From: Candidatus Kuenenbacteria bacterium
GTDB lineage: Bacteria > Patescibacteriota > Patescibacteriia > UBA2196 > GWA2-42-15
Length of the DNA: 60,339 nucleotides
NCBI GenBank assembly: GCA_012797775.1
Contig: JAAZOM010000023.1
Span: 1-60,339, forward strand
Direction of reading: 5' to 3'
The notes below the pieces were generated by a model. The model saw only the letters and a list, made by a program, of their open reading frames with translations, did no database searches and was not told where the DNA came from. Below are positions 70 to 60,214 of the stretch, in pieces (within the stretch, counting starts at the first letter, position 1; each line of letters opens with the position of its first letter). Made by a program: the position numbers and the translations under genes.

Positions 70-207
70 TGCTTTGCTCGCCGAGTTTCGGCGGGCGGAA
101 ACGCGGAGCGGAGCTAATCAAGCATTTTCCGTTCAAAAAAGTTCGAGCTTCGTTCAGTAATTGCGACCAATTATTTATTATCCTGGTTGATAAGACCCAA
201 TCTGGCC

Positions 208-2405: not shown

Positions 2406-3671
2406 ATGGACCTTTTCGACCACCAAATGAATAAAAATCTTCAATCCAGTGCACCGCTGGCTGATCGCCTGCGCCCACGGTCTTTGGATGAGTTTTTGGG
2501 CCAAGAGGGGATTGTCGGCCCCGGCACCCTGCTCCGCCGCGCTATTGAGGCCGATGATCTACCCTCGATGATCTTCTGGGGGCCGCCGGGCTCTGGCAAA
2601 ACCACCTTGGCCTCCGTCATCGCCAAGATGACCAATTCTTATTTTGTAGAGCTGTCTGGTGTCACTGCCGGGCTCAAAGATTTGCGCGCCGTAGTAGAAG
2701 AGGCCAAAGAAAGGCGAAAGTACAATAACCAGCGCACGATTCTTTTTGTAGATGAGATTCATCGCTGGAACAAAGCCCAACAGGATGGACTTTTGCCTTT
2801 TGTGGAAAAGGGAATAATTACCCTTATCGGTGCCACCACTGAAAATCCTTCGTTTGAAGTGATCGCCCCTCTACTTTCTCGCTCGCGCGTTTATGTGCTC
2901 AAGCCGCTCACTCCTTTAAATCTGAAAGTTATTATTGATCGCGCTCTCAAGGATGATTCTCGCGGCCTTGGCAAATATCAAGCCAAGATAGACAAGGAGG
3001 CTGAAGATTTTTTGATCAAGTCCAGCTCTGGCGATGCTAGGGTTATTCTCAATGCCCTTGAAGTGGCTGCAAAAAATACCCGCCTAGATAAATCCGGTCA
3101 GCATGTTGTGGATAAAAAATTGATTGAAGAGGCCCTCCAGCACAAGGCTCTGCAGTATGACAAGGCGGGTGATGAACACTACAATGTTATTTCTGCTTTT
3201 ATTAAATCTTTGCGCGGCAGCAGTGTTGACGGGGCGCTTTATTGGTTGGCCAGAATGGTAGAAGCTGGCGAGGATCCTAGGTTTATCGCCCGCCGCATGC
3301 TCATCCTCGCCTCGGAAGATATCGGCAATGCTGACCCCATGGCTCTGGTTGTGGCCAATGCTGTTTTTGAAGCGGTGGACAAAATCGGCTGGCCCGAAGC
3401 CCAGATCAATCTAGCTCAAGGTGTGGTCTATCTGGCCAAGGCACCCAAGTCCAATGCTTCTTATGTTGCGCTGATGAAAGCCAAAGAAGACGTCAAAAAT
3501 ACCCTCAACTTGCCAGTGCCCCTGCACCTGCGCAACGCCCCCACCCACTTGATGAAAGAGCTGGGATATGGTAATAATTATAAATATAGTCACGATTACA
3601 GCCCGGAAGAGGGTAAACAGGATTATCTACCAGAAGAATTGGCTGATCACCAATATTATTTTGAAAAATAG
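2406..3671 (+). CDS. rarA: Replication-associated recombination protein A (AAA+ ATPase, MgsA/RarA)
   Basis: Walker A GPPGSGKTT, Walker B LFVDEIHR, and the C-terminal MgsA-type segment YDKAGDEHYNVISAFIKSLRGS. Confidence 0.9.
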   Translation: MDLFDHQMNKNLQSSAPLADRLRPRSLDEFLGQEGIVGPGTLLRRAIEADDLPSMIFWGPPGSGKTTLASVIAKMTNSYFVELSGVTAGLKDLRAVVEEAKERRKYNNQRTILFVDEIHRWNKAQQDGLLPFVEKGIITLIGATTENPSFEVIAPLLSRSRVYVLKPLTPLNLKVIIDRALKDDSRGLGKYQAKIDKEAEDFLIKSSSGDARVILNALEVAAKNTRLDKSGQHVVDKKLIEEALQHKALQYDKAGDEHYNVISAFIKSLRGSSVDGALYWLARMVEAGEDPRFIARRMLILASEDIGNADPMALVVANAVFEAVDKIGWPEAQINLAQGVVYLAKAPKSNASYVALMKAKEDVKNTLNLPVPLHLRNAPTHLMKELGYGNNYKYSHDYSPEEGKQDYLPEELADHQYYFEK

Positions 3672-3718
3672 AATTAGTTAAAAAATATTGAAACAAAAGC
3701 ACAAAAGGAGGTGTCGTC

Positions 3719-3928
3719 ATGACCAGAGTTCTTGTGAGGCAGGTAACAGATGCCGAAGACTTGGCTCGCGTTGGCCAATTACTGGCCACTTTTCCCCATC
3801 GTGATGGTTTTTTCAATCCGGAGGCTGGCCACAAGATTGTAGAGTTTGGCAAGCGCAAGACCGGACGAAAAGCTGTTCGAAAGCTACGAGAGGCCAGGAT
3901 CAATTTCAAGACCATTTCTACCAACTGA
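3719..3928 (+). CDS. Hypothetical 69-aa protein (GC-richer ORFan cassette, gene 1)
   Basis: GGAGG lies 7 nt upstream of the ATG. G+C is visibly higher than in the flanks. No motif recognised. Confidence 0.5.
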   Translation: MTRVLVRQVTDAEDLARVGQLLATFPHRDGFFNPEAGHKIVEFGKRKTGRKAVRKLREARINFKTISTN

Positions 3929-3941
3929 TAGGGAGGCAACT

Positions 3942-4139
3942 ATGCTGATAGTAAAGGAGGTCAGAGACTTCACCACACTGGGAAGGGTCGACGGTCTCTT
4001 GAGCGGAGCCGGCTTTGCTTTCTCTTCTGTTCTTGACCCCGACACCGGCACAGATACCCTATCCTTTCAGGGGATAGATCAGGAGCAAAAAGCGGCTTTT
4101 CTGCTTATCGACCACGACTTTGCTGTTGTGGCGGCCTAA
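3942..4139 (+). CDS. Hypothetical 65-aa protein (GC-richer ORFan cassette, gene 2)
   Basis: This is the internal ATG of ORF 3846..4139, with GGAGG 5 nt upstream. It starts 13 nt after the stop of the preceding gene. Confidence 0.5.
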   Translation: MLIVKEVRDFTTLGRVDGLLSGAGFAFSSVLDPDTGTDTLSFQGIDQEQKAAFLLIDHDFAVVAA

Positions 4140-4145
4140 AATCTA

Positions 4146-4179
4146 GGGAGAACCCAAAAGGTTCTCCCTTTGTTTTTTG
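4146..4179 (+). terminator. Rho-independent terminator
   Basis: GGGAGAACC-CAAAA-GGTTCTCCC (9-bp stem) followed by TTTGTTTTTTG. Confidence 0.75.
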
Positions 4180-4225
4180 TTCAGATTTGCGCTAGGATAA
4201 TTATAGAATAAGTAAATCAAAATAT

Positions 4226-5287
4226 ATGTTCAAAAAATATCTTTTGGCTTTTCTTTTCTTCTGTGTCTTGGCTGGCGTACTTTTTGTCATCCGTGGCAAT
4301 GAAGATGGCTGGCTGTGTGTTAATGGCGTATGGGTGAAACATGGCAACCCCGAGGCTCCGATGCCCACTTCTGTCTGCGGCGAATCGATTAATACCAACG
4401 AAAATAACCCTGTTGGTCTCGCCAATCCAGCTTCCAAAAACTGCCTTGATCAGGGTGGCCAATTGACCATAAAAAAAGATGAGACTGGCGGTGAATATGG
4501 GGTATGCACCCTCAAAGACGGTAGTGAATGTGAGGAGTGGGCTTTATTTAGACGAGAATGCCAACCCGGGATCAAGGTTATCACACCCCAAAAAGACACA
4601 ACTGTTCAAAGTCCGCTTACGATTACCGGTGAAGCGCGGGGCACCTGGTTTTTTGAAGCCAGTTTCCCAGTCAAATTGGTTGATGAGTTTGATAATATTT
4701 TGGCCACAGGCGTAGCTACAGCCGATCCGCCAGCTGGCGGAGACTGGATGACCGAAGATTATGTTCCATTTAAAGCCGAATTGTCTTTTCCCCTAGCTAT
4801 CACTGACAAGGGTTATTTGCTTTTAAACAAAGACAACCCTTCTGGTTTGCCAGGCAATGATTTGCAGTTAAAAGTTCCCGTGGTCCTGCTCAAGGGCGAA
4901 ACCGAAAAAGTCAAAGTATTTTTCAATAATAACAATCTTGATCCGGAAATTTCCTGCCAAAAAGTTTTCCCAATTGAAAGAGAAATACTAAAAACCCCGG
5001 CTGTAGCCGAGGCAGCCATAAAAGAATTATTAAAAGGACCGAGCCAGGCAGAGAAAGATAACGGTTATTTTTCCAACATTCCCGAGGGTGTTAAAATCCA
5101 AAAATTGACTATAGAAAAAGGCGTCGCCAAGGTTGATTTCGATAAAACTCTAGAGAGTGCGGCTGGCGGTTCCTGTCGTGTATCTGCTGTGCGCGCGGAA
5201 ATCACCGAAACCCTACTACAGTTTTCCACAGTCAAATCCGTAGTCATTTCCATTGATGGCCGTTCTGAGGACATTCTCCAGCCATAA
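4226..5287 (+). CDS. Secreted or anchored multidomain protein (DUF333-like, Gmad2 Ig-like and GerMN-like regions)
   Basis: N-terminal hydrophobic anchor. The NPASKNC..GG..C..ECEEWALFRREC segment resembles DUF333. The later parts resemble Gmad2 and Germane domains (from memory). Confidence 0.65.
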   Translation: MFKKYLLAFLFFCVLAGVLFVIRGNEDGWLCVNGVWVKHGNPEAPMPTSVCGESINTNENNPVGLANPASKNCLDQGGQLTIKKDETGGEYGVCTLKDGSECEEWALFRRECQPGIKVITPQKDTTVQSPLTITGEARGTWFFEASFPVKLVDEFDNILATGVATADPPAGGDWMTEDYVPFKAELSFPLAITDKGYLLLNKDNPSGLPGNDLQLKVPVVLLKGETEKVKVFFNNNNLDPEISCQKVFPIEREILKTPAVAEAAIKELLKGPSQAEKDNGYFSNIPEGVKIQKLTIEKGVAKVDFDKTLESAAGGSCRVSAVRAEITETLLQFSTVKSVVISIDGRSEDILQP

Positions 5288-8353: not shown

Positions 8354-9355
8354 ATGTTTGATCTGGAAAAATTAAAACAAATTTTATCAGCCGAACCATC
8401 TTTTCGCTTGAGTCAGGCCCTCCGCCTGATTTTTGTTGATTTGCTGGGCACTTGGGCTCCGGCCACGGTTTTCCCCATTGTCTTGAGGGAAAAATTACAG
8501 CAGGAGTTCCCCCTGCCTCTTGATGCCAAAGAGTTTCCTTCCTCTGACGGGCGCACCATCAAAATTTTATTAAAACTAGCCGATGGCCTATCGGTTGAAT
8601 CAGTCTTGATGTCTTATCCGGGGCAGAGAAATACCGTCTGTGTTTCCTCTATGGTTGGCTGTCCCTTGGCTTGCACTTTTTGCGCCACTGGGAAGCTGGG
8701 CTTCCAGCGGAATTTGACCGCAGGAGAAATTGTAGATCAGGTTTTATATTTTAGCCGCTATCTAAAGTCAAAAGGGGGACGGGTAGATAATGTGGTATTT
8801 ATGGGCATGGGTGAGCCATTTTTAAATTATGATAATGTTCTTGAGGCCATTAGGTTTCTCAACAGTAAAGATAGTCTAAATATTGGTGCGCGCCATTTTT
8901 CTATTTCCACGGCCGGCATTCCCGTTGGCATAAAAAAGCTGGCCAAAGAAAACCTGGCAGTCAATCTGGCCGTCTCGCTCCACGCCCCAAATGATCAATT
9001 ACGCGCTAGTCTTATGCCCATTGCCCGGCAATATCCACTGGAGCAAATTTTTCAGGCCGTTGATTACTACCTCAGCGCCAGTCATCGCAAGGTGATGTTT
9101 GAATATCTCTTGATCAAAGACAAAAATGACGGTCCGGCTGCAGCTGAGGCCCTCGCCAAGCTAATAAAGAAAAAGCTCTACCATCTCAACCTGATGACCT
9201 ACAACCTGACTGGCATTTTCGAGTCATCACCGCCGGACCGTTGCCGGATCTTTCAGTCGATTTTGGAAAAGAAAAAAGTCAGTGTCACTTTCCGTCATAG
9301 TTTTGGGGGTGATATCGCCGCCGCTTGTGGTCAGCTCGCCGGTCGGAAAAAATAA
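8354..9355 (+). CDS. rlmN: Radical-SAM 23S rRNA/tRNA adenine-C2 methyltransferase (RlmN/Cfr family)
   Basis: CPLACTFCATG radical-SAM cluster motif, GMGEPFLNYDNV, and a C-terminal Cys in AAACGQL. Confidence 0.85.
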   Translation: MFDLEKLKQILSAEPSFRLSQALRLIFVDLLGTWAPATVFPIVLREKLQQEFPLPLDAKEFPSSDGRTIKILLKLADGLSVESVLMSYPGQRNTVCVSSMVGCPLACTFCATGKLGFQRNLTAGEIVDQVLYFSRYLKSKGGRVDNVVFMGMGEPFLNYDNVLEAIRFLNSKDSLNIGARHFSISTAGIPVGIKKLAKENLAVNLAVSLHAPNDQLRASLMPIARQYPLEQIFQAVDYYLSASHRKVMFEYLLIKDKNDGPAAAEALAKLIKKKLYHLNLMTYNLTGIFESSPPDRCRIFQSILEKKKVSVTFRHSFGGDIAAACGQLAGRKK

Positions 9356-9427: not shown

Positions 9428-10825
9428 TCACTCCTTTTGTTCCGTTATCGGTTCCATAATCATTTCTCTTACTACCCCGCCCCTTGTTTCTCTGACAGTA
9501 ATTTTTAGGGGCTGTTGTGTATTTGCGTTTTTGGATACGATTTCCAACAGCCTCGCCACCATTCCATTCCATTCACCATCCCCATCATCGCTCGGGGGAT
9601 GGTTGTAGACTGGCTTTACCCCTGTTCCGGCTTCAGTGGTGCTATCTTTTGGTAAAATTAGTTCAGCTTTTTCTCCAGTTGCCTTTTCTACCATTTGGGG
9701 GGCGGAAGCGGGCGGCTCGATTTTTGTAGCGTGTATTTCCTGGACATCCGATGTCAACGGACTTTGGGTCACGGACACATCCACTATCGCCGAGGAGGAA
9801 AAGCGATATTGTTTATGGAGCGGATTAAAGCCACTTTCTGACTGAGTTAGCTCCGTCAGCCCTTCAGATTTAACCATTACCGGGCAGAGATCGCGCCTAT
9901 TTTCAGTCGTGCCGCTAATCATAGTTTTTCCCCCTGGGGGAAGGCTGGCGATCTTTGTTTTTGCACCAGCAGAGATATACAGCAGCTTGGTTTGTTGACT
10001 TGGCTGGGGAACTGGCTGCTGGTCTGGCTGTCGAGCCGGCTGGTTTTCGGGGTCCAGACTGAGAATATTCTTGATTTGGAATTTGCATACCCCGGGTTTC
10101 CCCTCGCAAGGCACGAGTTCTCCCCTGACCAAGATCGGTACATAGCCTGGGTAGGGCCGCGTTTCGTGGCCAGTCAGCCATGACCTTCTTTTCCTCCCCC
10201 CTGTTTTTTTTCCTTGGAGACCGAGTTTTGTATTATAACTTATATACAAAACTTTGGTTTCAGCAGGAGTTGGTTCTTTTTTTCCCATTACGATTGCCTC
10301 CCTGTTTGCTTCGCTTATTTCATGCGGCGGGTGTCTTTTATAATCACATACAAGATACCCATCTTCCGTTTCCTCCACCCAGCAATTGCTGGGTATCTCC
10401 ACTGGCATCCGCTCTTTTCCTTGTTCATCCCAGGCAGGAAAGTAGCCATCTTCGGCCAGGAGCAGCTGCCAACTTACTGGGGCATATAGTCGTATATCTC
10501 TGACCAGAATATCACCTATTCTTATCTGAAACATAGGTCCGAGACCGCCCCCGATATTTCCCCTCAGGGAGGTTTTATCTATCTCCTGTCTTCCCGTAAC
10601 GAGAACCAGTATTTGCCCCCGAGAAGACTTTGCCAGATGAGCATAGCGAGTCTGACAAACTATGCGGGGCATGTTTGGAGCCTGATCATCGGCCATAAAA
10701 AGCAGGGCCTCTTCGGCAATCCTATCCCCTTGAAATCTCAGTTTGCTGACTTTTTGTGTCGGAGAAAGATCGTGTCTTCCTGCTCGGGTTCTTTTTTTTT
10801 GCTTCCGAGGCAAAGTCGTCATCAT
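9428..10825 (-). CDS. Hypothetical 465-aa protein (large GC-richer ORFan)
   Basis: Long ORF with visibly higher G+C and a Gln/Pro-rich linker (QPARQPDQQPVPQPSQQ). No recognised motif. The start region has an A9 tract and an overlapping alternative ORF. Confidence 0.6.
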   Translation of the reverse strand: MMTTLPRKQKKRTRAGRHDLSPTQKVSKLRFQGDRIAEEALLFMADDQAPNMPRIVCQTRYAHLAKSSRGQILVLVTGRQEIDKTSLRGNIGGGLGPMFQIRIGDILVRDIRLYAPVSWQLLLAEDGYFPAWDEQGKERMPVEIPSNCWVEETEDGYLVCDYKRHPPHEISEANREAIVMGKKEPTPAETKVLYISYNTKLGLQGKKTGGRKRRSWLTGHETRPYPGYVPILVRGELVPCEGKPGVCKFQIKNILSLDPENQPARQPDQQPVPQPSQQTKLLYISAGAKTKIASLPPGGKTMISGTTENRRDLCPVMVKSEGLTELTQSESGFNPLHKQYRFSSSAIVDVSVTQSPLTSDVQEIHATKIEPPASAPQMVEKATGEKAELILPKDSTTEAGTGVKPVYNHPPSDDGDGEWNGMVARLLEIVSKNANTQQPLKITVRETRGGVVREMIMEPITEQKE

Positions 10826-10894
10826 CTACCATACTTCCGACGTCGTATTCTTCATCCGGAATTATGTTCATTGGTCACATCCTTTCGTGAGTTA

Positions 10895-11356
10895 TCATCC
10901 TCCTTCGACATCCAAGATGCAGACCCGGTCTTCTTTGGCTTTTTTGGCCCACAACAAAGATCCTATATAGCGGCCAGCCAATAAATATCCTAGCCACATC
11001 AGGTTGGCCAGAACAATTGTAGCGACAAGGGAAGAAAACCATTTTCTAAAATGTGGATCTTCCCAGAGTCCGGGAATAAAACTCAGGACAAAGGTTACCG
11101 CCGAACAGACGAGGGCGGTCAAAAAACCTTCATAGAAAAGGTCGAATTTTTTCCCGTCCTTGTGGCGGTTTAGGGACATTACCTTCGGCCAGCCCTGATA
11201 GAAGAAGACTACGGATGCAAGACCGACCCAAGCCGCAATCCAACATGGCATCGGGGTTGTTACCTTACTCACTAGCCACTGTACCAGGTGGCACAGGCCA
11301 CCGATTGTGACCAGAAGCAGGGTCTTTGTAAACAGCCAACTGATTATTTTTTTCAT
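10895..11356 (-). CDS. Hypothetical membrane protein (153 aa, about 4 TM), co-oriented with the 465-aa ORFan
   Basis: GGAGG lies 4 nt upstream of the ATG. Four hydrophobic helices, GC-richer. Confidence 0.6.
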   Translation of the reverse strand: MKKIISWLFTKTLLLVTIGGLCHLVQWLVSKVTTPMPCWIAAWVGLASVVFFYQGWPKVMSLNRHKDGKKFDLFYEGFLTALVCSAVTFVLSFIPGLWEDPHFRKWFSSLVATIVLANLMWLGYLLAGRYIGSLLWAKKAKEDRVCILDVEGG

Positions 11357-13376: not shown

Positions 13377-13419
13377 TCAACAAAAAACCGTCCTATCAGC
13401 GGCCTTAATTGAAAAATTT

Positions 13420-13451
13420 ATTGGAAATTGGAAATTAGAAATTGGGAATTG
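13420..13451. repeat. Heptanucleotide tandem array
   Basis: ATTGGAA ATTGGAA ATTAGAA ATTGGGA ATTG, located just downstream of the corA stop. Confidence 0.6.
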
Positions 13452-13454
13452 TAT

Positions 13455-14384
13455 TTATATCCATCTCCTTCTTTTGAAATACAAAAGCATCATACACAGC
13501 CCGAAAAGCATCAGTCCAACAATATACCAAAAACCATGTTCACTTTCCACGAAAGGCATTGATTCTACAGTATTCATCCCAAAAACCGCGGCCAAAAGAG
13601 TCAGTGGGAAAACGATGACCGAAAATATTGTTAGGGTTTTCATTATCTCGTTTATTTTTAGGTTGGTCATCGAAGTTTGCGTTTCGTGTAGGGCATTGAT
13701 GGTATCTTTGTAATTTACTAGGGTGTTCCAAATATCTTTTGTATGGTTGACCAAAAAAATAAACTCCTTGCGCAATCCCTCTGGGCAATTAAAATTAATC
13801 ATACTTTCTACAAATCTCTGCAGTATGCCATAGTGTGACTGCAGGGTCTTTTGGAAATTGACGATATTTCTTTTAATCAGAAGCACATTGCGAATAGTTT
13901 CTTCTTCCGCTTTGCTCAAGATCTGTTTTTCCACATTATCAATATCCAGATTGATATGGTTGATAATCGGATAGCAATAATTATATAGCTTGCTTAGTAT
14001 CTTGAAAAAGATAGTCAGGGCATCGTCTTTTTCTATGGTCGATCTGGTCAAGGGATCAGTTTGACAGAGGTTGAAAAAGTCCACCAAGGGTTTTAGTCGC
14101 CCGTCGTGGCAGACTATTAGTTGTTTTTTGCTGACAAAGATATCCAACTCCGACGGCTCGATTGTCCCCACCTCACGATTGTAAACCGGGAACTGCAGGA
14201 CGATGAAGATGTATTTCTGGCGGTCATTGATTTTCTGCCGCTGCAGAAGTGGAGCGCACTCAGCTATATCAGACGGATCAAATCCAAACTCTTGCCGAAG
14301 ATATTTCAGATTGTCTTGGTCCGGGTTGGTGATATCTAGCCACAAAGCATGCCTTGTTTTTAATTCTTTTATTTTTGAGAGCAT
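13455..14384 (-). CDS. corA: CorA-type Mg2+/Co2+ channel
   Basis: Two C-terminal TM helices with a GMN motif (AAVFGMNTV). Length and architecture are typical of CorA. Confidence 0.85.
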   Translation of the reverse strand: MLSKIKELKTRHALWLDITNPDQDNLKYLRQEFGFDPSDIAECAPLLQRQKINDRQKYIFIVLQFPVYNREVGTIEPSELDIFVSKKQLIVCHDGRLKPLVDFFNLCQTDPLTRSTIEKDDALTIFFKILSKLYNYCYPIINHINLDIDNVEKQILSKAEEETIRNVLLIKRNIVNFQKTLQSHYGILQRFVESMINFNCPEGLRKEFIFLVNHTKDIWNTLVNYKDTINALHETQTSMTNLKINEIMKTLTIFSVIVFPLTLLAAVFGMNTVESMPFVESEHGFWYIVGLMLFGLCMMLLYFKRRRWI

Positions 14385-32042: not shown

Positions 32043-33116
32043 ATGAATATCGTTATCTTCGCTGGCGGGATTGGTACGCGCCTCTGGCCTCTTTCTCGGG
32101 CCAATTCTCCAAAACAATTCGATGCTATCTGGGGTGGTAAATCGACCCTGCGTCTGGCAGTGGAGCGCCTACGGCCGACTTTTTCGTGGCAAAATATTTT
32201 TATTCAAACTGTCTCGAATTTCCGCTCGGCCGTTGCCGCGCAGATACCCGAATTGCCAGCCAAAAATATTTTTATCGAGCCTGACAGGAGAAATGTCGGT
32301 CCAGCGGTTTGTCTCGCTATGTCTCGGCTCCGGCAGTTGGGACAAAATGGACCAGTCGCCATTGTCTGGGCTGATCATTTGGTAAAAAACCCAAACGAGT
32401 TTATAAAAAATTTAAAAATAGGGGAAAAACTTATTTTAGAACAACCCAATCGTTTTGTCTTTCTGGCCGAGAAGCCGCGCTTTGCCAATAACAATCTTGG
32501 CTGGTTAAGGGCCGGCAAAAAAATGGGTCAGCTTTCCGGGGTCAATTATTTTAGTTTTTTGGGCTGGCAATATCGGCCTGACCAAAAAACCTGTGACCAA
32601 TTTTTCCGCTCCAGCGATTATTATTGGAATCCCGGCTATTTTATCAGTTCAGTAGATTTTATCTTGTCAGAATATCAGAAATTGGCTCCTAAGATTTATT
32701 CCCCAGTTCAAAAAACCCTCTCCGCCAAGAACGTTAGGCAGGTCTTTGAATTTTACAGCCAGGCGCCCAAGATTTCTTTTGATAATTGTTTGATAGAAAA
32801 AACAGATTTGCGTGACGCCATCGTGCTGAAAACCGATATGGGCTGGAGCGACCCCGGCACTCTTTATGCGCTCAAAGAAGCCCTGCAAAAAAAGACCACC
32901 GACAATGTTATTTCCGGGGCTGTTTTCAATCTTAACACCGAGGATTCCCTAGTGTACAACCTAGAAAAAGGCAAGCTTGTTGCCACCGTTGGTCTCCATG
33001 GTATGGTGGTTGTCAATACCAAAGATGCTGTTATCGTTGTCCCCAAGGATAAAGTAAAAGAAGTGACCGAACTGGTCGAGGCCCTGAGCCGCGACGGCTA
33101 CAAAAAATATCTTTAA
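32043..33116 (+). CDS. Sugar-1-phosphate (mannose-1-phosphate-type) guanylyl/nucleotidyltransferase
   Basis: IFAGGIGTRLWPLSR nucleotidyltransferase loop. At 357 aa it lacks an isomerase domain. Confidence 0.75.
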   Translation: MNIVIFAGGIGTRLWPLSRANSPKQFDAIWGGKSTLRLAVERLRPTFSWQNIFIQTVSNFRSAVAAQIPELPAKNIFIEPDRRNVGPAVCLAMSRLRQLGQNGPVAIVWADHLVKNPNEFIKNLKIGEKLILEQPNRFVFLAEKPRFANNNLGWLRAGKKMGQLSGVNYFSFLGWQYRPDQKTCDQFFRSSDYYWNPGYFISSVDFILSEYQKLAPKIYSPVQKTLSAKNVRQVFEFYSQAPKISFDNCLIEKTDLRDAIVLKTDMGWSDPGTLYALKEALQKKTTDNVISGAVFNLNTEDSLVYNLEKGKLVATVGLHGMVVVNTKDAVIVVPKDKVKEVTELVEALSRDGYKKYL

Positions 33117-38339: not shown

Positions 38340-38378
38340 TGCCTGATTATTTAAAATATTTTTGGCGAATAAAATATC

Positions 38379-38409
38379 AAGATATTAAATATTGAATATT
38401 CAATATCTG
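38379..38409. repeat. Palindromic heptamer array
   Basis: AAGATATTAAATATTGAATATTCAATATCTG, with the units TTAAATA TTGAATA TTCAATA. The first 22 nt are identical to 44362-44383. Confidence 0.6.
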
Positions 38410-38502: not shown

Positions 38503-39183
38503 ATGGAAAAGATAAATCTTACCCAATTTATTTCCAATTCCGGTTTGTGCTCTCGGCGTCAGGCCGAGGAGCTGATTCGTAGGGGAGAGGTTAGGGTTAA
38601 TGGCCGCTTGGCCGTTTTGGGCCTAAAAATTGATCCCCAAAAAGACAAGATAGAAGCTAATGGCCAATTGATCAAACCAGCCGAGAAGAAAGTTTATTAT
38701 CTAGTCAATAAGCCCATTGGCTATACTTGTACAGTAAAAGATATCCACGCCGAGAAAAAAGTTATTGATCTGGTGCCCCCATTTCCAAGAGTCTGGCCAG
38801 TCGGCCGCCTGGACAGAGACAGTCGGGGCTTGATTATCCTCACCAATGATGGAGATTTGACTTACAAATTAACTCATCCCAAGTTTGAGCACCCCAAAGA
38901 ATATTTGGTTACTCTGAACAAACCAATTACTCCAGAGTTGTTGTTAAAACTAAAACAAGGTGTTAAATTGGAAGAAGGGCTGGCCAAAGTTGATTCTATG
39001 AAGCAAGTTAGCCCGACCAAGTTATCAATTACCATTCACCAAGGCTGGAAACGTCAGATCCGTCGCATGGTTGAAGCGGGCGGTTATAAAGTTGTAGATT
39101 TAGTTAGGGTGAGAATTGGCAAGATAAAACTGGGGGAATTGAAGGAGGGAAAATACAAAGAATTAAAAGAAGTTTTACCTTGA
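38503..39183 (+). CDS. rRNA pseudouridine synthase, RsuA/RluB family
   Basis: S4 domain (LCSRRQAEELIRRGEV) and the catalytic GRLDRDSRGLIILTND. Confidence 0.85.
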   Translation: MEKINLTQFISNSGLCSRRQAEELIRRGEVRVNGRLAVLGLKIDPQKDKIEANGQLIKPAEKKVYYLVNKPIGYTCTVKDIHAEKKVIDLVPPFPRVWPVGRLDRDSRGLIILTNDGDLTYKLTHPKFEHPKEYLVTLNKPITPELLLKLKQGVKLEEGLAKVDSMKQVSPTKLSITIHQGWKRQIRRMVEAGGYKVVDLVRVRIGKIKLGELKEGKYKELKEVLP

Positions 39184-39196
39184 ACAAGGTGAAAGG

Positions 39197-39247
39197 TCCC
39201 GTGGTGAGGGGCGTTTGCGACGGGATCCCTCGCTCCGCTCAGGATAA
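39197..39247. repeat. GC-rich double-hairpin spacer element
   Basis: TCCCGT...ACGGGA and ATCCCTCGCTCCGCTCAGGAT. The reverse complement of 39225-39247 matches 59365-59387 inside tgt at 21 of 23 positions. Confidence 0.55.
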
Positions 39248-39258
39248 AATAAATATTT

Positions 39259-39681
39259 ATGAAATTAAGAATTAAAAAATTAAAAACAGAAGCCGTTATC
39301 CCACACTACGCTCACCCCGGCGATGTTGGCCTAGATTTATTTTCTTTAGAAGATTATGATTTAAAACCTGGCGAGCGGCATGTTTTTGATTTGGGTTTTG
39401 CTTTGGAATTTGAAACCGGCTACGCTGCCATTGTTAAGGATAAAAGCGGTTTACCAAAGAAAGCCGGCTTACACACCATGGGTGGGGTTTTTGACGCCGG
39501 ATACAGGGGTGAATACAATGTTCAGCTAATCAATCTTGGTCAAGAAACTTATCAAATTAAAGCCGGTGACAAGCTCGCCCAATTGGTTATTTTTCCCGTG
39601 GTTATTGCCGATTTGGAAGAAACCGATGAATTGTCGGATTCGGAGAGAGGTGAGGGGAGATTTGGGTCAACAGGCAGATAA
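39259..39681 (+). CDS. dut: dUTP diphosphatase
   Basis: GVFDAGYRGE and the C-terminal RGEGRFGSTG. Confidence 0.9.
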   Translation: MKLRIKKLKTEAVIPHYAHPGDVGLDLFSLEDYDLKPGERHVFDLGFALEFETGYAAIVKDKSGLPKKAGLHTMGGVFDAGYRGEYNVQLINLGQETYQIKAGDKLAQLVIFPVVIADLEETDELSDSERGEGRFGSTGR

Positions 39682-44333: not shown

Positions 44334-44361
44334 AAGCCAGCCTAACAATTTATTTTTGATG

Positions 44362-44407
44362 AAGATATTAAATATTGAATATTAAATATTTAATATTCAA
44401 TATCCTG
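44362..44407. repeat. Palindromic heptamer array, the longer allele of the 38379 element
   Basis: Same ends as 38379-38409 with an extra AAATATTTAATATT (14 nt, two units) at 44384-44397. Confidence 0.6.
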
Positions 44408-49769: not shown

Positions 49770-51038
49770 ATGAAAAAAATAATTCAATTTATTTTAAAAT
49801 TTTTTTGTCGCCTGATTTTAAAAAAATATCAGCCAGAAATTATTGGCATTACCGGTAGTGTGGGTAAGACTTCAGCCAAGCTGGCCGTCGAAGTGGTTTT
49901 GTCACCGAGTTTTATTGTTCGCTCCAGCCCCAAAAATTATAATACCGAGATTGGCGTCCCCCTTACTATTATCAACACCAAAAATCCCGGCCGTTCTCTT
50001 TTTGGCTGGCTCGTTGTTTTTCTAAAAGCCTTGTCCTTGATTGTTGCTCGCGACAGAAATTATCCACAAATATTAATCTTGGAAATGGCCGCCGACCACC
50101 CAGGTGATATCGAATACCTTGTTAATTTGGCTAGGCCAAAAATCGGCGTGATTACCGCTGTCGGTCCGACCCATCTGGAATTTTTTAAAAGTGTGGAAAA
50201 TGTTTTTAAAGAAAAAAACAAACTTATTGCCGCAATCGATAAATCTGGCTGGGCCATTATCAATAGCGACGATCCTCTGGCTCTAAATTCCAAAAACAGC
50301 GCCAAGGCCAAAACTATCACCTTTGGACTGAGCCCCGGCGCTGATCTGCTCGCTGCCGACATTATCCTAGATAAAGAAAAATATTCGCTTAATTTCAAGC
50401 TGGGTTATCGGGGTTCTTTCGTTCCAGTCAGTCTGGAAAACATTCTTGGTCGTCCAGCTCTTTATGCTGTTTTGGCCGGAGCTGCGGTAGGTCTAGCTCG
50501 TGGTTTGAACCTAGTAGAGATCAGCCTGTGCCTGAAAAATTATCAATCCCCATCTGGCCGTCTAAAAATTATACCCGGTATAAAAAACACCAAAATTATT
50601 GATGATACCTACAACTCTTCCCCCTTGTCAGTCAAAGCTGGTCTGGAGGTCTTGTCACACCTTCGGTGTGCCGGCCATAAATTTGCCGTATTGGGGGACA
50701 TGTTAGAGCTCGGCAGTCATACCGAAAGCGCGCATAAAGAAATAGGTGAAGAGGTCGCCCGTCTCGGACTTGATTATCTGGTAGCTGTGGGAGAAAATTC
50801 ACGTCACCTCGCCGCCTCAGCCAAAGAATATGGCATGAACGAAGACCGCATTTATACTTTTGACAAATCTAGTGAAGCTGGTAAATTTATACAAGACAAA
50901 ATAGGAGAAGGGGATTTGCTTTTAATCAAGGGTTCGCAGGGTAGTCGCATGGAGAAAATTGTCAAGGAAATCATGGCCGAGCCAGAGCGGGCAGCAGAGT
51001 TGCTTGTTCGTCAGGGTGAAGAGTGGGAGAGAAGATAA
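49770..51038 (+). CDS. murF: Mur ligase, MurF-like (UDP-MurNAc-tripeptide--D-Ala-D-Ala ligase)
   Basis: GITGSVGKTS P-loop, DDTYNSSP, and Mur ligase middle and C-terminal domains. Confidence 0.75.
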   Translation: MKKIIQFILKFFCRLILKKYQPEIIGITGSVGKTSAKLAVEVVLSPSFIVRSSPKNYNTEIGVPLTIINTKNPGRSLFGWLVVFLKALSLIVARDRNYPQILILEMAADHPGDIEYLVNLARPKIGVITAVGPTHLEFFKSVENVFKEKNKLIAAIDKSGWAIINSDDPLALNSKNSAKAKTITFGLSPGADLLAADIILDKEKYSLNFKLGYRGSFVPVSLENILGRPALYAVLAGAAVGLARGLNLVEISLCLKNYQSPSGRLKIIPGIKNTKIIDDTYNSSPLSVKAGLEVLSHLRCAGHKFAVLGDMLELGSHTESAHKEIGEEVARLGLDYLVAVGENSRHLAASAKEYGMNEDRIYTFDKSSEAGKFIQDKIGEGDLLLIKGSQGSRMEKIVKEIMAEPERAAELLVRQGEEWERR

Positions 51039-51160
51039 TTCTGAAATTTTTAATTTTCAATTTTCAAACAATTTTCAATACTCCAATTCTTCAATTAATT
51101 GAGACATTAAGAAATTGTAACATTCATTGAAAATTGAAAATTCAGTAATTGAAAATTAAC
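51039..51160. repeat. Inverted heptamer-array element (long AT-rich hairpin)
   Basis: The left arm (AATTTTC-type units) and right arm (GAAAATT-type units) are complementary. It shares an exact 17-mer with 57880-57896 and a 14-mer with 1-14. Confidence 0.65.
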
Positions 51161-51164
51161 TCAA

Positions 51165-51859: not shown

Positions 51860-53035
51860 TTACTTCACCATCAATAAATTCGGGCTAAAGATCATTATCG
51901 CCCCCAAAATGAATAAGAGCAGTCCGCCGATCAGATGTGAGTATTTGGCGTATTTTTTATTGCCCACAAACAGCTTCCAGCTAAAGCCGGCAATCAAAAG
52001 CACCACGATATCGTCGAGCATGTAGAAAAAGTCGTATATCAAAAGATACAGATAGCGCCCGCCAGAGGAGATATTATTTTGTGAGAGGATCTGCGTATAG
52101 ACCGCCGGGATGCCGGCTGAGCACAAGAGCTCTATCAGATTGATGCTAAAGGCGATGAGTGTAATACCCGCGATGATACCCAGAGTTTTTTCTTTTTGTA
52201 AAATTTTTTCCAGCCGGCTGATGATTTTACTTTTTGTCTCTGTGGAAGTCACTTCACAAGTCAAGTCGTTTTTTTTGCGATTTTTTAGATAATCGCGGAA
52301 AAAATAAATCCCCACCCCGATTGCCAGTATGCCAATAATTATTCTAATGGCGACGATATAGCCGATGACGAGAAAAGTATTCAGCCAGGCTGTTAAAAAC
52401 AGGAAATAAGATATTGAAGAAGCAATGATGTATGTCCAGCCCACCAGCCACATTTTTTTCTTACTGCCGGAATTTATGAGCAGGGTGATCAAAACCAAAA
52501 GTGCCCACATCGAGCAGGGATTAAATCCGTCTACTGCGCCAAGCACTATTGTCAAGACAGGCAGTGATAGTTTTTGAATATCTACCTCACCGATGAGCGG
52601 TAGATGGTATTTATTTTCTTTTGTCTTTTGGCCTGGCATTTCCGCAGTAGTCCTGCCAGTATAGATATCCAGCGCTTTTATGATCTGTTGGCCGGTCGTA
52701 TTTTCATTGCCAAAGCCATAGATTATTTTTTCTCCGATGATCGTCACTGGTACACTGCCAAAAGCTTTACCTGTTCTTTCGCGGGTCATTTTCAAAAGCA
52801 GAGCCTGGTTATCAGTATTTTTCCATGTTTCATACGAGATCCAGTCAATCTCTGGATAATTGTCTTTTATTGTCTCCCAAAAAATCTGTTCCTCGTGGCA
52901 ATGCGGACAGCCATCACCCCAGAAAAAATAAACCGGCAATTTTTCTTGCGCCCCGGCTTTATCAATATTAAAAAACATCGCCGCTCCAGCGATTATTATT
53001 ACCAACAGAATAAGTAGTATTATTTTGGGCTTCAT
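51860..53035 (-). CDS. Thioredoxin-fold domain fused to a DsbD/CcdA-like membrane thiol-disulfide transporter
   Basis: Signal anchor, CPHC redox motif, and a C-terminal multi-TM part with GFNPCSMW. ATG 53035 is preferred. Confidence 0.7.
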   Translation of the reverse strand: MKPKIILLILLVIIIAGAAMFFNIDKAGAQEKLPVYFFWGDGCPHCHEEQIFWETIKDNYPEIDWISYETWKNTDNQALLLKMTRERTGKAFGSVPVTIIGEKIIYGFGNENTTGQQIIKALDIYTGRTTAEMPGQKTKENKYHLPLIGEVDIQKLSLPVLTIVLGAVDGFNPCSMWALLVLITLLINSGSKKKMWLVGWTYIIASSISYFLFLTAWLNTFLVIGYIVAIRIIIGILAIGVGIYFFRDYLKNRKKNDLTCEVTSTETKSKIISRLEKILQKEKTLGIIAGITLIAFSINLIELLCSAGIPAVYTQILSQNNISSGGRYLYLLIYDFFYMLDDIVVLLIAGFSWKLFVGNKKYAKYSHLIGGLLLFILGAIMIFSPNLLMVK

Positions 53036-53186
53036 ATTAGTATTTTTTATTATAATGCAAATCTTCAAACTGGTCAATTTTGTGCTTTCCCTAGACAAAA
53101 ATCCAGTTTTTTGCTAAAGTGATTTCTATCCGCAAAAACCAAAATAAACAATTGCGGCAAACAAAAAACAAACCGTGGAGGCCAGT

Positions 53187-56493: not shown

Positions 56494-56507
56494 ATTAATA
56501 TTTGTAT

Positions 56508-57014
56508 ATGAAAATTTTAGGTAGAGAATTTGGTAGAGGTATACCAGAGGGCGAAGCCGAAGAGGCAGCTTCTTTTGGTCGAAGAGAATTTGTCACCCTA
56601 GCAAAGGAAAAAATCAGTGACTTTTTGGCGGCGAATAGGGAAATTATAAAATCTTTATCAGCCAGTGCTTTTTCTAAATTTAGAGAAAGCTTAAGCTTGA
56701 GTTTGGGGGGTCTAATGTTTTTCACGGCCGTTGACGAAGGATTGGGCGCCGAAGCCGACCCCTATGGTATTTTGGCCGAGCTCGAGGCTATGCGTAAAAA
56801 TTCGCCCGCCGAAACCTCCGCTCCGAGCGATCTTGCACCGAAAGAATTGAAAGCAGTAGAAAGAATGCCCAAAGGTCCATCGCCACCTTCTGGTGGGGTA
56901 TCAGGGTTTCGCCCGCTAGGAGAGGCTGATTATGCTCGCTTGCGAGCTGATCGCAAATTCACCAATGCTATTACCGGAGAAGAAAACATAGGAGACATTG
57001 GCGGGGATAAATAA
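56508..57014 (+). CDS. Hypothetical protein (168 aa)
   Basis: ATG 56508 within ORF 56502..57014. One hydrophobic stretch and a Pro/Gly/Ser-rich tail. No motif recognised. Confidence 0.5.
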   Translation: MKILGREFGRGIPEGEAEEAASFGRREFVTLAKEKISDFLAANREIIKSLSASAFSKFRESLSLSLGGLMFFTAVDEGLGAEADPYGILAELEAMRKNSPAETSAPSDLAPKELKAVERMPKGPSPPSGGVSGFRPLGEADYARLRADRKFTNAITGEENIGDIGGDK

Positions 57015-57321: not shown

Positions 57322-57864
57322 ATGGTTTTGGTATCACAATTGATTTGGCTCTTTTTGCCAGTTGGTATCGCCAATATTTTTGCCTCACTTTCACGGCACA
57401 TCTTGCCCCAATGGATTTATCCCTTGGATTTTAATAAGGAATTTAGAGGCAAAAGAATTTTTGGTGGCCACAAAACAATCCGCGGCTTTATTTTTGGGGT
57501 ATCAGCCGCTTTTTTGTTTTTTATTTTTCAAATATATTTATATAATACTTGCCCAGCCATCAACAATATTAGTCTTATTAACTATAGTGATTCAAGTATT
57601 CTCATTGGATTTATTATGGGGCTGGGCGCGCTTTTGGGCGACGCTCTCAAAAGTTTTTTCAAGCGCCAAATCAATATTCCCCCTGGCCGGCCATGGTTCC
57701 CTTTTGACCAGCTAGACTGGGTAGTCGGCGGCACTCTTTTGAGCTGGCCTTTTGTCAGTGTTTCCAGTTATACAATTATCACCGCCATCGGCTTGGGTTT
57801 ATTATTTCACTTATTATTCAAAGTTATTGGTTATATTTTTAGAGTAGACAAGACGATAATTTAA
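57322..57864 (+). CDS. CDP-archaeol synthase-like (CarS/DUF46 family) membrane protein
   Basis: LPVGIANIFA, FGGHKTIRGFIFG, GDALKSFFKRQINIPPG and PFDQLDWVVG match the CarS-family pattern (from memory). About 5 TM. Confidence 0.65.
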   Translation: MVLVSQLIWLFLPVGIANIFASLSRHILPQWIYPLDFNKEFRGKRIFGGHKTIRGFIFGVSAAFLFFIFQIYLYNTCPAINNISLINYSDSSILIGFIMGLGALLGDALKSFFKRQINIPPGRPWFPFDQLDWVVGGTLLSWPFVSVSSYTIITAIGLGLLFHLLFKVIGYIFRVDKTII

Positions 57865-57972
57865 CAATTTTCAATTTATAATTTTCAAACAATTTTATAA
57901 TGTCTTAATTTTTGAATTGAATAATTAGGACATTGTTTTGAAATTAAAAATTAGAAATTAAAAATTGTTTTT
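57865..57972. repeat. Inverted heptamer-array element, homologous to 51039-51160
   Basis: The left arm CAATTTTCAATTTATAATTTTCAAACAATTTT is complementary in vocabulary to the right arm GAAATTAAAAATTAGAAATTAAAAATTG. It shares a 17-mer with 51059-51075. Confidence 0.65.
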
Positions 57973-59056: not shown

Positions 59057-60214
59057 ATGTTTAAAGTTTTAAAACAATCAAAAAAATCCCGTGCCCGCTT
59101 GGGCCTTTTGAAAACGCCTCATGGAGACATTGAGACGCCTTTTTTTATGCCCATCGCTACCAAGGGCTCGGTCAAAGCGCTGACCCCGGAAGATCTCAAA
59201 AATATCGGGGCGAGTATTATCCTTTCCAATACTTATCATCTTTATTTACAACCCGGTTTGGATGTTTTGAAAAAATTTGGCGGACTGCATAAATTTATGG
59301 GTTGGAACGGCCCGATTCTGACCGATAGTGGCGGTTACCAGGTTTTTAGTTTGAGTAATAAAGTTTATCCTGAGCGGAGTGAAGGATTGCGTGGTCCCTA
59401 TTCTTCCCTTGTTAAAATAAACAAGGCTGGTGTAGAATTTCGTTCTTTCCTCGATGGCTCCAAACATTTATTTACCCCAGAGAGTGTTCAGCAGATCCAA
59501 GATGCCATCGGCTCAGACATAAAAATGGTCCTTGATGTCTGCTCACCTCATCCCTGTGCCAAAAAGCAAGCCGAAATTGATCTAAAGCTGACTCACGATT
59601 GGGCCAAGAGAGCGCTGGAATATCACCGCAGAACGCAAAACACAATTAGCAAAGATCAAAAAAATAAAAATCTTTTGTTTGGCATTATCCAAGGGTCAAC
59701 CTATAAAGACTTAAGATTAAACTCTGCCAAATTTTTATCTGGGCTTGATTTTGACGGCCTGGCTATTGGCGGTTTGGCTGTGGGCGAAGACAATAAAACA
59801 ATGTATCAGGTTTTAGATTATACTATTCCCGAACTGCCAGTTAACAAGCCGCGCTACCTCATGGGTGTGGGTAAACCAGAAAATATTATTGAAGCCATCA
59901 AAAGGGGAGTAGATATGTTTGATTGTGTCATCCCCACGCGCGAAGCGCGACACGGCCGGCTATATACCTTTAAAAATAATAAACTTTTGGGCAATTTTTA
60001 TAATGTTATAAACATTCTCAATTCAAAATATAAAAAAGACACCAAACCATTGGATAAAAGTTGTACTTGCGAGTTGTGTCAAAATTATAGCGCCGGCTAT
60101 TTACATCATCTGTTTAAAGCCGGTGAACCTCTAGCTTTGCGTCTAGCCACCTTGCACAATTTAGCTTTCTATGTTAAATTGATAAATCAAACAAAAAATA
60201 AGGAGCTTGTCTAG
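59057..60214 (+). CDS. tgt: Queuine/guanine tRNA-ribosyltransferase
   Basis: TDSGGYQV, LAIGGLAVGE, the CTCELC zinc site and GVDMFDCV. Confidence 0.92.
   Translation: MFKVLKQSKKSRARLGLLKTPHGDIETPFFMPIATKGSVKALTPEDLKNIGASIILSNTYHLYLQPGLDVLKKFGGLHKFMGWNGPILTDSGGYQVFSLSNKVYPERSEGLRGPYSSLVKINKAGVEFRSFLDGSKHLFTPESVQQIQDAIGSDIKMVLDVCSPHPCAKKQAEIDLKLTHDWAKRALEYHRRTQNTISKDQKNKNLLFGIIQGSTYKDLRLNSAKFLSGLDFDGLAIGGLAVGEDNKTMYQVLDYTIPELPVNKPRYLMGVGKPENIIEAIKRGVDMFDCVIPTREARHGRLYTFKNNKLLGNFYNVINILNSKYKKDTKPLDKSCTCELCQNYSAGYLHHLFKAGEPLALRLATLHNLAFYVKLINQTKNKELV
59357..59410. repeat. GC-hairpin element embedded in frame in tgt
   Basis: TTATCCTGAGCGGAGTGAAGGAT (59365-59387) matches the reverse complement of 39225-39247 at 21 of 23 positions. 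It encodes ..KVYPERSEGLRGPYSS.. Confidence 0.55.

Follow-up and report, generated by a model that had tools for sequence, protein, structure and literature searches.

The tgt gene and its inserted segment

Contig JAAZOM010000023.1 of Candidatus Kuenenbacteria bacterium (assembly GCA_012797775.1; 60,339 nucleotides, the whole of which is referred to here as the window) encodes an intact queuine/guanine tRNA-ribosyltransferase, Tgt, whose gene contains a short GC-rich hairpin sequence that is read in frame and that recurs on the opposite strand in the spacer between a pseudouridine synthase gene (rluB) and the dUTPase gene dut. These two sequences, and the dispersed family of short palindromic repeats to which they very probably belong, are the subject of this report. 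The features concerned are the following.

38503-39183, plus strand: pseudouridine synthase gene (S4 and PseudoU_synth_2 domains, Pfam), upstream flank of the spacer copy
39192-39206, plus strand: AAAGGTCCCGTGGTG, similar to part of the element's tail in inverted orientation (compare AAGGATCCCGTGG); pairs with 39220-39227 to give a larger spacer hairpin
39217-39249, minus strand: spacer copy, reading TTTTATCCTGAGCGGAGCGAGGGATCCCGTCGC on the minus strand; intergenic
39259-39681, plus strand: dUTPase gene dut (Pfam), downstream flank of the spacer copy
59057-60214, plus strand: tgt, intact (Pfam TGT, E = 4e-141; PDB Tgt, E = 4e-104 over residues 8-380)
59357-59404, plus strand: Tgt codons 101-116, NKVYPERSEGLRGPYS, a 16-residue insertion seen as a gap in the HMMER alignment to the Zymomonas mobilis Tgt chains
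59364-59393, plus strand: in-frame hairpin element in tgt, TTTATCCTGAGCGGAGTGAAGGATTGCGTG; core stem-loop 59367-59387

The initial annotation had placed an in-frame segment behind the catalytic DSGG motif of Tgt, and this holds: in an intact open reading frame (ORF), 16 residues begin directly after ..DSGGYQVMSLS at a position where the Z. mobilis structures have nothing. The translation across the element runs ..DSGGYQVFSLSNKVYPERSEGLRGPYSSLVKINKAGVEFR.., and YPERSEG is the part of the insertion that the element contributes. An AlphaFold2 model of the window Tgt has a mean predicted local distance difference test score (pLDDT) of 86 and a predicted template modelling score (pTM) of 0.87, with residues 98-115 as its sole segment below a pLDDT of 50; because the gap relative to the PDB chains and this segment coincide, the insert is predicted to be a disordered loop adjoining the DSGG motif.

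The peptide, whose wider conservation the initial annotation had flagged as a counter-argument, is not shared by Tgt of unrelated lineages. It is absent from the Z. mobilis enzyme, and in an alignment of 47 Tgt orthologues from Patescibacteria (with source names such as Kuenenbacteria, Komeilibacteria and Kerfeldbacteria) the segment after QVFSL is hypervariable in both length and sequence, (V/I)YPER..EG occurring only in P0003, P0005 and P0007, the nearest relatives (75-80% identity). When tgt of the window is compared with that of two relatives, L001 and L003, third codon positions outside the element are identical at a fraction of 0.52-0.59, and the codons of the element core, TAT CCT GAG CGG AG(C/T) GAA GGA, are almost identical, which points to constraint at the level of DNA or RNA, or to homogenisation between copies.

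The matching pair in the window

The tgt copy at 59365-59387 (TTATCCTGAGCGGAGTGAAGGAT, plus strand) agrees with the reverse complement of spacer positions 39225-39247 at 21 of 23 positions, exactly as first reported, and the match can be widened to 29 nt (39220-39248 and 59364-59392) at 86% identity (25/29), including a 16-mer, TTTATCCTGAGCGGAG, that is common to both copies. A covariance model of the family recovers these two copies and no others in the window, the tgt copy at 59363-59391 with 30.6 bits and the spacer copy at 39221-39249 with 39.2 bits, both sequences having themselves been in the training set of the model. A related word, GCGGAGCGGAG, at 104-114 had been put forward as a further occurrence; it is not a copy, having no AT..AT stem and no match to the model at E values up to 10.

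How far the pair alone can be trusted was gauged by comparing all 23-mers of the window against each other on both strands, keeping those with at least 21/23 identity and a GC count of at least 11/23, alongside Markov-shuffled controls. Two qualifying pairs were found in the real window against a mean of 0.08 in shuffled windows, one of twelve of which had a single pair. A targeted search gave two matches in 0 of 100 shuffles, in a test picked after the match had been seen. Since shuffled windows average 0.08 comparable pairs, the pair taken by itself is suggestive, with a probability of roughly 8% by chance, and not decisive.

Both copies had been described as folding into ATCCT...AGGAT hairpins. 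This is accurate for the tgt copy, in which ATCCT and AGGAT can pair, and only approximate for the minus strand of the spacer copy, in which ATCCT and GGGAT form four Watson-Crick pairs and one G-T pair; in either case the short hairpin is energetically weak. The spacer copy is antisense to both flanking genes, and its T-rich head ends 10 nt before the dut start codon. Folded as RNA in the plus sense, 39184-39258 reaches -25.6 kcal/mol (z = -1.75), with GGUCCCGU pairing with ACGGGAUC. The tail motif of the element, GGATCCCGTG, is found again in copies of relatives.

The same element in relatives

The loop after the DSGG motif (site 1) contains TTTATCCTGAGCGGAGCGAAGGATCCC(G/T)TG in the contig DNA of L001 and L003. 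The site-1 sequence of the close Tgt orthologues, TTTATCCTGAGCGGAGCGAAGGATCCCGTG, is nearer to the spacer copy of the window than the window's own tgt copy is; for L003, 28 of 31 positions are identical to the spacer copy (TTTTATCCTGAGCGGAGCGAGGGATCCCGTC). In L002 the inner loop at site 1 has 15 extra nt, so that its length differs between orthologous copies. A second Tgt loop, following ARHGRLY (site 2), carries the same termini with a longer GC-rich inner hairpin in L001, L002 and L004. The window and L003 have nothing at site 2, and L004 has nothing at site 1. The site-2 copy of L305 has a TGTC head, and its 5' end is translated in another frame (LSSRP..EGSRG); in L261 and L307 the same site holds inverted doublets that are partly read in antisense (ILRYAQND, LLRFARND).

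The element is also found between genes. L302, a strain 99.5% identical to the window whose sequence reaches past the window end, has a third copy, TTTTATCCCGAGCGCAGTTGAGGGATCCCGGG, in the spacer between the genes for YbaB and DnaB, and the corresponding spacer of L001 contains one too. Two relatives that are syntenic with the window (gene order RecO-Tgt-L21-RecR-YbaB-DnaB), L308 and L309, lack the element both at site 1 and in the YbaB-DnaB spacer. Their site 1 is otherwise occupied: in L309 (gene 546-1835) by a canonical TGTC-headed inverted doublet of repetitive extragenic palindromic (REP) sequences, TGTCATTCCCGATCTAATCGGGAATCCAGAA...CCCGAGGATGACAG, encoding VIPDLIGNPE..SPEDD, and in L308 (gene 10001-11245) by an AT-rich repeat of the AATTTCCAAAT type, encoding FPNPNFQINYKSQIPNPK, which resembles the spacer repeats of the clade. 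The sites in relatives are best read as independent gains and losses of one DNA element and not as a conserved peptide. The proposal of a dispersed GC-rich hairpin present both in a spacer and in frame in tgt is thus supported by the relatives' DNA, and the match, whose restriction to two sites had been named as a reason for doubt, extends to the second Tgt loop, to other spacers and to more than 250 places in public contigs.

Architecture and spread of the family

The canonical unit can be written (T/C)GTC-AT-NNN-GAGCG-N-AGCGA-NNN-AT-C or, with the CCT/AGG stem, (T/C)GTC-AT-CCT-GA-GC-GNA-GC-GA-AGG-AT-C. A short unpaired head is followed by an A-T and a T-A pair, three covarying pairs, two G.A positions, a GC-GNA-GC mini-hairpin and a short tail; in the long forms a second GC-rich hairpin stands in place of the loop. 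The window lineage has its own subfamily, TTTATCC(T/C)GAGCG...CGA(A/G)GGATCCCGTG, which appears to derive from the canonical (T/C)GTC-ATNNNGAGCG-N-AGCGANNNAT-C(T/C).

Viral contigs of IMG/VR and species-representative genomes were searched with the pattern ATCCTGAGCG-N(1-31)-GCGAAGGATC, which matched 96 IMG/VR contig stretches and at least 120 genome-contig stretches. Cores that are near-identical stand at more than 250 separate positions of public viral and genome contigs. By their record titles, the genome matches listed include Chloroflexota, Acidobacteriota, Patescibacteria (Saccharibacteria, Komeilibacteria), Omnitrophota, Planctomycetota, Gemmatimonadota, Bacillota, Bacteroidota (with the isolate Hymenobacter glaciei), Cyanobacteria and several Proteobacteria. 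The trinucleotide GTC, which is not part of the search pattern, stands directly 5' of 104/113 and 137/144 of the distinct matches listed, the heads of the wider family being mostly TGTC or CGTC. The base right after the pattern is T or C, and the central N is the chief variable position. Many copies form inverted doublets with their heads outward and 10-45 nt apart.

Covariation of the stem was assessed in two ways. With a pattern fixing only the loop and the AT ends, seven different stems were seen, and among the 50 stems other than CCT/AGG, 41 are fully Watson-Crick paired and 7 have one G-T pair, where about one fully complementary stem would be expected by chance. In a 42-sequence alignment (A2), 99.7% of cells pair and 31 cells have changed on both sides, either value being reached in 0 of 500 shuffles. 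AT...AT stem ends are present in all 42 aligned copies, both window copies included, an invariance that is in part a product of selection and not independent, because 41 of the 42 had been collected with a pattern that demanded AT at each end. G-T pairs outnumber A-C pairs on the GTCAT strand, and there is weak evidence that this is the strand that folds. The core, d(ATCCTGAGCGNAGCGAAGGAT), and its RNA version may fold with tandem sheared G.A pairs and a GNA triloop. An Rfam scan of both window copies and four copy-rich loci returned no family at the gathering threshold, and a hammerhead-like or other ribozyme reading of CUGA..GAA was dropped, no CUGANGA core being present on inspection.

Two arrays of such units were also noticed. 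The IMG/VR contig L054 has a tandem array at 8560-8980 with an 87-nt period, in which the REP subfamilies GTCATCCTGAGCGTCAGCGAAGGATC and GTCATTCTGAGGGAGTGAAGCGACCGAAGAATC alternate over at least five units up to the contig end. At 2242-2588 of L265, a Patescibacteria contig of 31% GC, at least six REP units of several subfamilies are packed into about 350 nt and yield spurious ORFs of about 150 codons (VVILNEVKNL, CHPESFSSKDP..).

Location of copies and reading frames

A covariance-model census of 1.08 Mb of Patescibacteria loci gave 28 distinct copies, about 17 of them intergenic and 11 in long ORFs, nine of the latter in Tgt and two elsewhere, a count biased towards Tgt because the loci were picked for containing it. 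A strict-pattern census of 1 Mb of Tgt-neighbourhood loci returned 11 matches only, so that the family is sparse outside the near relatives of the window. One of the two genic copies outside Tgt belongs to L305, in a minus-strand gene (2979-4502) whose 507-residue product has a KH-like domain besides two GTPase domains and is Der/EngA-like judging by its Pfam hits. A doublet of the same hairpin family at 3819-3938 is read there in antisense (..RDSSTSLGMT..) at about residues 188-228, which we infer to lie between the two GTPase domains.

Across the census copies the element is read in at least four combinations of frame and orientation. The question of whether the frame is always preserved, raised by the initial annotation, therefore has a divided answer: the host ORF stays open, while copies of the element are translated in several frames and both orientations, and 'in frame' means only that surviving insertions leave the host ORF open.

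Relation to known repeat systems

The closest published counterpart is the CGTC-tagged class of REPs (Di Nocera, De Gregorio and Rocco 2013, BMC Genomics 14:522, PMC3733652). These have a CGTC or TGTC (also CCTC) head, stems of 8-9 bp whose first pairs are almost always A-T and T-A, loops of 4-5 nt and short CCA tails; they are mostly dimers, lack a dedicated transposase and are mainly intergenic, with translated intragenic copies in several species, and Neisseria dRS3 as well as RPE-4 and RPE-6 of R. conorii are members (Di Nocera et al. 2013). Many of them are argued to be transcribed and to act as RNA elements (Di Nocera et al. 2013). The element described here likewise has a head that does not pair, (C/T)GTC in canonical copies, and a stem that starts with AT; it is dispersed, mainly intergenic, forms inverted dimers and is genic in a minority of cases, and the ORFs near copies in 216 loci include no flanking dedicated transposase. 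The peptides agree as well, VIPDLIGNP (P0004) and CHPELVSGS (site 2 of P0026) from Tgt inserts resembling the REP-encoded VIPAKAGI and RHSELVSGS (Di Nocera et al. 2013). The differences lie in the stem, which has nine positions with two G.A/A.G and a 3-nt GNA loop instead of 8-9 fully paired bp and a loop of 4-5 nt, and in the tails, which are CCCGTC in the spacer copy, TGCGTG in the tgt copy and CCCGTG in the subfamily against the published CCA. Canonical copies of L004 (CCAGAA) and a TGTC REP doublet of L302 (CCATTC and CCAGAA) do match the published tail. The Patescibacteria host falls outside the five phyla in which CGTC repeats were reported; the stem pruning of that study removed every stem in which two or more mismatches occurred (Di Nocera et al. 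2013) and would have dropped this family, because its stem has two G.A positions. In a literature search, CCTGAGCGAAGCGAAGG, VILSEAKD and HPERSEG were without occurrence in any of the papers listed from the library searched, the matches listed being only polymerase chain reaction primer coincidences of the 10-mer ATCCTGAGCG, and a search joining Patescibacteria or Candidate Phyla Radiation (CPR) with REP terms gave nothing relevant.

Rickettsia palindromic elements of type 1 (RPE-1), described by Ogata and colleagues in 2000, are reportedly about 100-150 bp long and restricted to Rickettsia. By description the two are alike in being palindromic, in residing in a host-dependent bacterium with a reduced genome, in occurring both in spacers and in frame in essential genes, and in being tolerated as surface segments. 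They differ in that the present element measures 21-60 nt and its family extends across many phyla, and the RPE link itself rests on the inclusion of RPE-4 and RPE-6 among CGTC REPs (Di Nocera et al. 2013).

GTAG REPs and REPINs, which are associated with REP-associated tyrosine transposases (RAYTs, IS200/IS605-like Y1 HUH enzymes), share with the element a head of four unpaired nucleotides 5' of a short hairpin, the formation of inverted doublets, the lack of autonomy and a presumed single-stranded intermediate. Unlike them, the element has a GTC (wider family) or TTT (window) head instead of GTAG/GTGG, and no RAYT gene adjoins its copies in the ORF clustering at 216 loci. Pfam annotation covers eight ORFs of the window, and a RAYT gene could lie elsewhere in the genome. 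Moreover, a REP is typically confined to one species, whereas this core hardly differs between phyla among the genome matches listed. Cyanobacterial small dispersed repeats (SDRs), described by Elhai and colleagues in 2008, are said to be imperfect palindromes of about 21-27 nt that insert in spacers, in each other and occasionally in genes; they are likened to the element here by description, in size and insertion habit, and are unrelated in sequence and lineage. Miniature inverted-repeat transposable elements were considered as well, the doublets looking like 25-nt inverted ends, and were rejected: the flanks are without duplication, and no associated insertion sequence was found near copies in the ORF clustering.

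Weighing the explanations

The tgt and spacer sequences very probably represent copies of a short palindromic repeat of the REP type that is not autonomous, and this repeat most likely lies in, or next to, the CGTC-tagged REP superfamily to judge from its architecture. This reading is backed by membership in the repeat family, by the covarying stem, by independent insertions into two Tgt loops in either orientation, and by presence or absence in syntenic relatives. One copy would have landed between the pseudouridine synthase gene and dut, and another in the Tgt surface loop after DSGGYQVFSL in the common ancestor with L001, L002 and L003. The latter may owe its survival to a loop in which additional residues are tolerated and to an insert that has no stop codon and preserves the frame; it would now be translated as a disordered 16-residue loop (YPERSEG...), most likely without a function of its own, a tolerated passenger being the simplest reading. 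By analogy with the mobilisation of REPs by RAYT HUH transposases, the element may spread as a folded single strand, perhaps the top strand (GTCAT...), through an enzyme acting in trans from another locus; gene conversion between copies may also spread it or keep it uniform.

A number of observations weigh against the REP reading. The window copies have a TTT(T)-ATCC head without the defining CGTC/TGTC tag, and since this TTT head is that of their subfamily, they fall outside the tag definition; the tag is present in the wider family and in other Patescibacteria copies (L118, L166, L261, L305). With two copies in the 60 kb of the window and three over about 70 kb of the strain, the family is small. 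The short forms fold at -1.7 to -3.0 kcal/mol as DNA or RNA, which is not better than shuffles, so that the structural claim rests on covariation and not on energy. Among DNA mini-hairpins d(GCGNAGC) is a classic case of unusual stability, and G.A pairs of the tandem sheared type are stable as well; the short-form fold may for this reason be underestimated by standard parameters. No mobilising enzyme was found: when the ORFs lying up to 1.5 kb from copies were clustered all against all for 216 loci, no gene recurred, the largest ORF family occurring in at most 6 of the 216 loci, all of them in related viral contigs. No target-site duplication is visible in the flanks of copies, and at Tgt site 2 the element takes the place of ancestral loop sequence instead of simply adding to it. 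Finally, no polymorphism was seen at the strain level: in exact-protein look-ups, L301-L304 (99.5-100% identical), which come from other samples, have both copies and are identical at both sites, so that no sign of current mobility was seen.

Some of these points would fit spread and uniformity of the same element by short-patch gene conversion or template switching between hairpins instead of by a transposase, a route that we judge unlikely rather than remote. It would account for the missing target-site duplication and the replacement of resident sequence at site 2, for orthologous copies that are nearly identical in nucleotides and vary in inner-loop length (as at site 1 of L002), and for the want of a dedicated transposase in CGTC REPs (Di Nocera et al. 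2013) and of any gene that recurs beside copies. Conversion, however, needs pre-existing homology at the target, and an element-free Tgt loop has none; the conserved unpaired head and tail are rather what would be expected of an enzyme recognition site, and the lineage-specific subfamilies with shared flanks look amplified from master copies.

It is distinctly improbable that the element is a cis-acting structural signal (for termination, stabilisation, RNase cleavage, replication or supercoiling) with the tgt copy as a functional intragenic version. Copies occur in both orientations relative to transcription, no T-run follows them, syntenic relatives do without the element, no Rfam family matches, and the short form has negligible predicted stability, even though stem covariation shows selection for pairing, nucleotide conservation in tgt exceeds the synonymous background, the spacer folds well below zero in the mRNA sense (see above) and many REPs are argued to be transcribed RNA elements (Di Nocera et al. 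2013). Since an element that spreads may acquire a function afterwards, such a role would in any case be compatible with the REP-repeat explanation.

Adaptation at the protein level would make the YPERSEG loop a selected feature of the clade's Tgt, for example in binding tRNA or a partner, with the likeness in DNA secondary. The insert is retained in four orthologues at 75-80% identity and lies close to the catalytic DSGG; this explanation is nevertheless very improbable in the light of a loop that is hypervariable across orthologues and predicted to be disordered, of conservation that operates on nucleotides, third codon positions included, and of syntenic relatives in which unrelated repeats (the REP doublet of L309, the AT-rich repeat of L308) fill site 1. 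Chance resemblance, by which a lineage-specific Tgt peptide would coincidentally match the spacer at 21 of 23 positions, accords with the shuffling result and with there being only two copies in the window, and is hardly credible, indeed untenable, because the DNA of relatives carries the same termini at a second Tgt loop and in other spacers, as do hundreds of unrelated contigs, in which the conserved GTC head was no part of the search pattern.

Wider implications of a probable REP-type element

Selfish hairpins of the REP type in frame in essential genes were known before from Rickettsia and a few other bacteria; what is new here is their presence in Patescibacteria (CPR), with their small, streamlined genomes. 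Such repeats would partly explain the hypervariable insertions of CPR proteins and odd recurring peptides such as HPERSEGS, VIPDLIGNP and LLRFARND, and in annotation and structure prediction segments of this kind should be read as repeat-encoded loops and not as lineage-specific domains. The repeated hits at two Tgt loops also form a natural set of independent insertions from which target preference, and eventually the mobilising activity of CGTC REPs, might be approached.

A broader proposal, which we regard as tentative and rather doubtful, is that GTCAT-NNN-GAGCG-N-AGCGA-NNN-ATC represents an uncatalogued REP family spanning most of the bacterial domain and mobilised by conserved trans-acting machinery. 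If this were true, a 25-nt core that is near-identical in more than 12 phyla and in viral contigs would point to conserved machinery that works on a single-stranded hairpin, one containing a GNA triloop and two G.A positions, and that would be the mobiliser still missing for CGTC-type REPs, and the two Patescibacteria Tgt loops would be recurrent insertion traps, with at least six independent hits in both orientations and from several subfamilies.

Other repeats and recurrent genes

Small genes of the 23S_rRNA_IVP/bAvd-like and PDDEXK_3 types recur in REP-bearing Patescibacteria loci, at 16427-16804 of L302, 9799-10176 of L309, 20904-21173 of L305, 8011-8412 of L001 and 14592-15035 of L004.

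The window contains repeats of several other kinds. AT-rich periodic repeats of the GAAATTGGAAATT / AATTTTCAATTTTCAAACAATTTT type lie in several intergenic regions (13406-13456, 44353-44403, 51112-51162 and 57922-57972), and a further AT-rich pair is formed by 51020-51075 and 57841-57896. The reverse-complement translation of the AT-rich repeat (QFPISNFQ..) matches peptides in the Tgt loops of P0029 and P0006, so that this spacer repeat may also enter genes. An AT-only palindromic repeat, ATATTAAATATTGAATATTCAATAT, with arms of 25 nt that are 96% complementary, is found in two spacers (38376-38406 and 44359-44403). The other GC-balanced pair with at least 21/23 identity is a 20-nt exact direct repeat, CCGCTCCAGCGATTATTATT, at 32605-32624 and 52980-52999, within two long ORFs (32043-33116, plus strand, and 51860-53098, minus strand). 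Lastly, an exact 13-mer, GTTTCGGCGGGCG, occurs in inverted orientation at 84-96 (plus) and 56806-56818 (minus), together with GGAGCGGAG; the first site is in the first spacer and the second inside an ORF without a Pfam match (56502-57014), and the sequence may be another GC-rich repeat type, unrelated to the hairpin element of tgt and the spacer.

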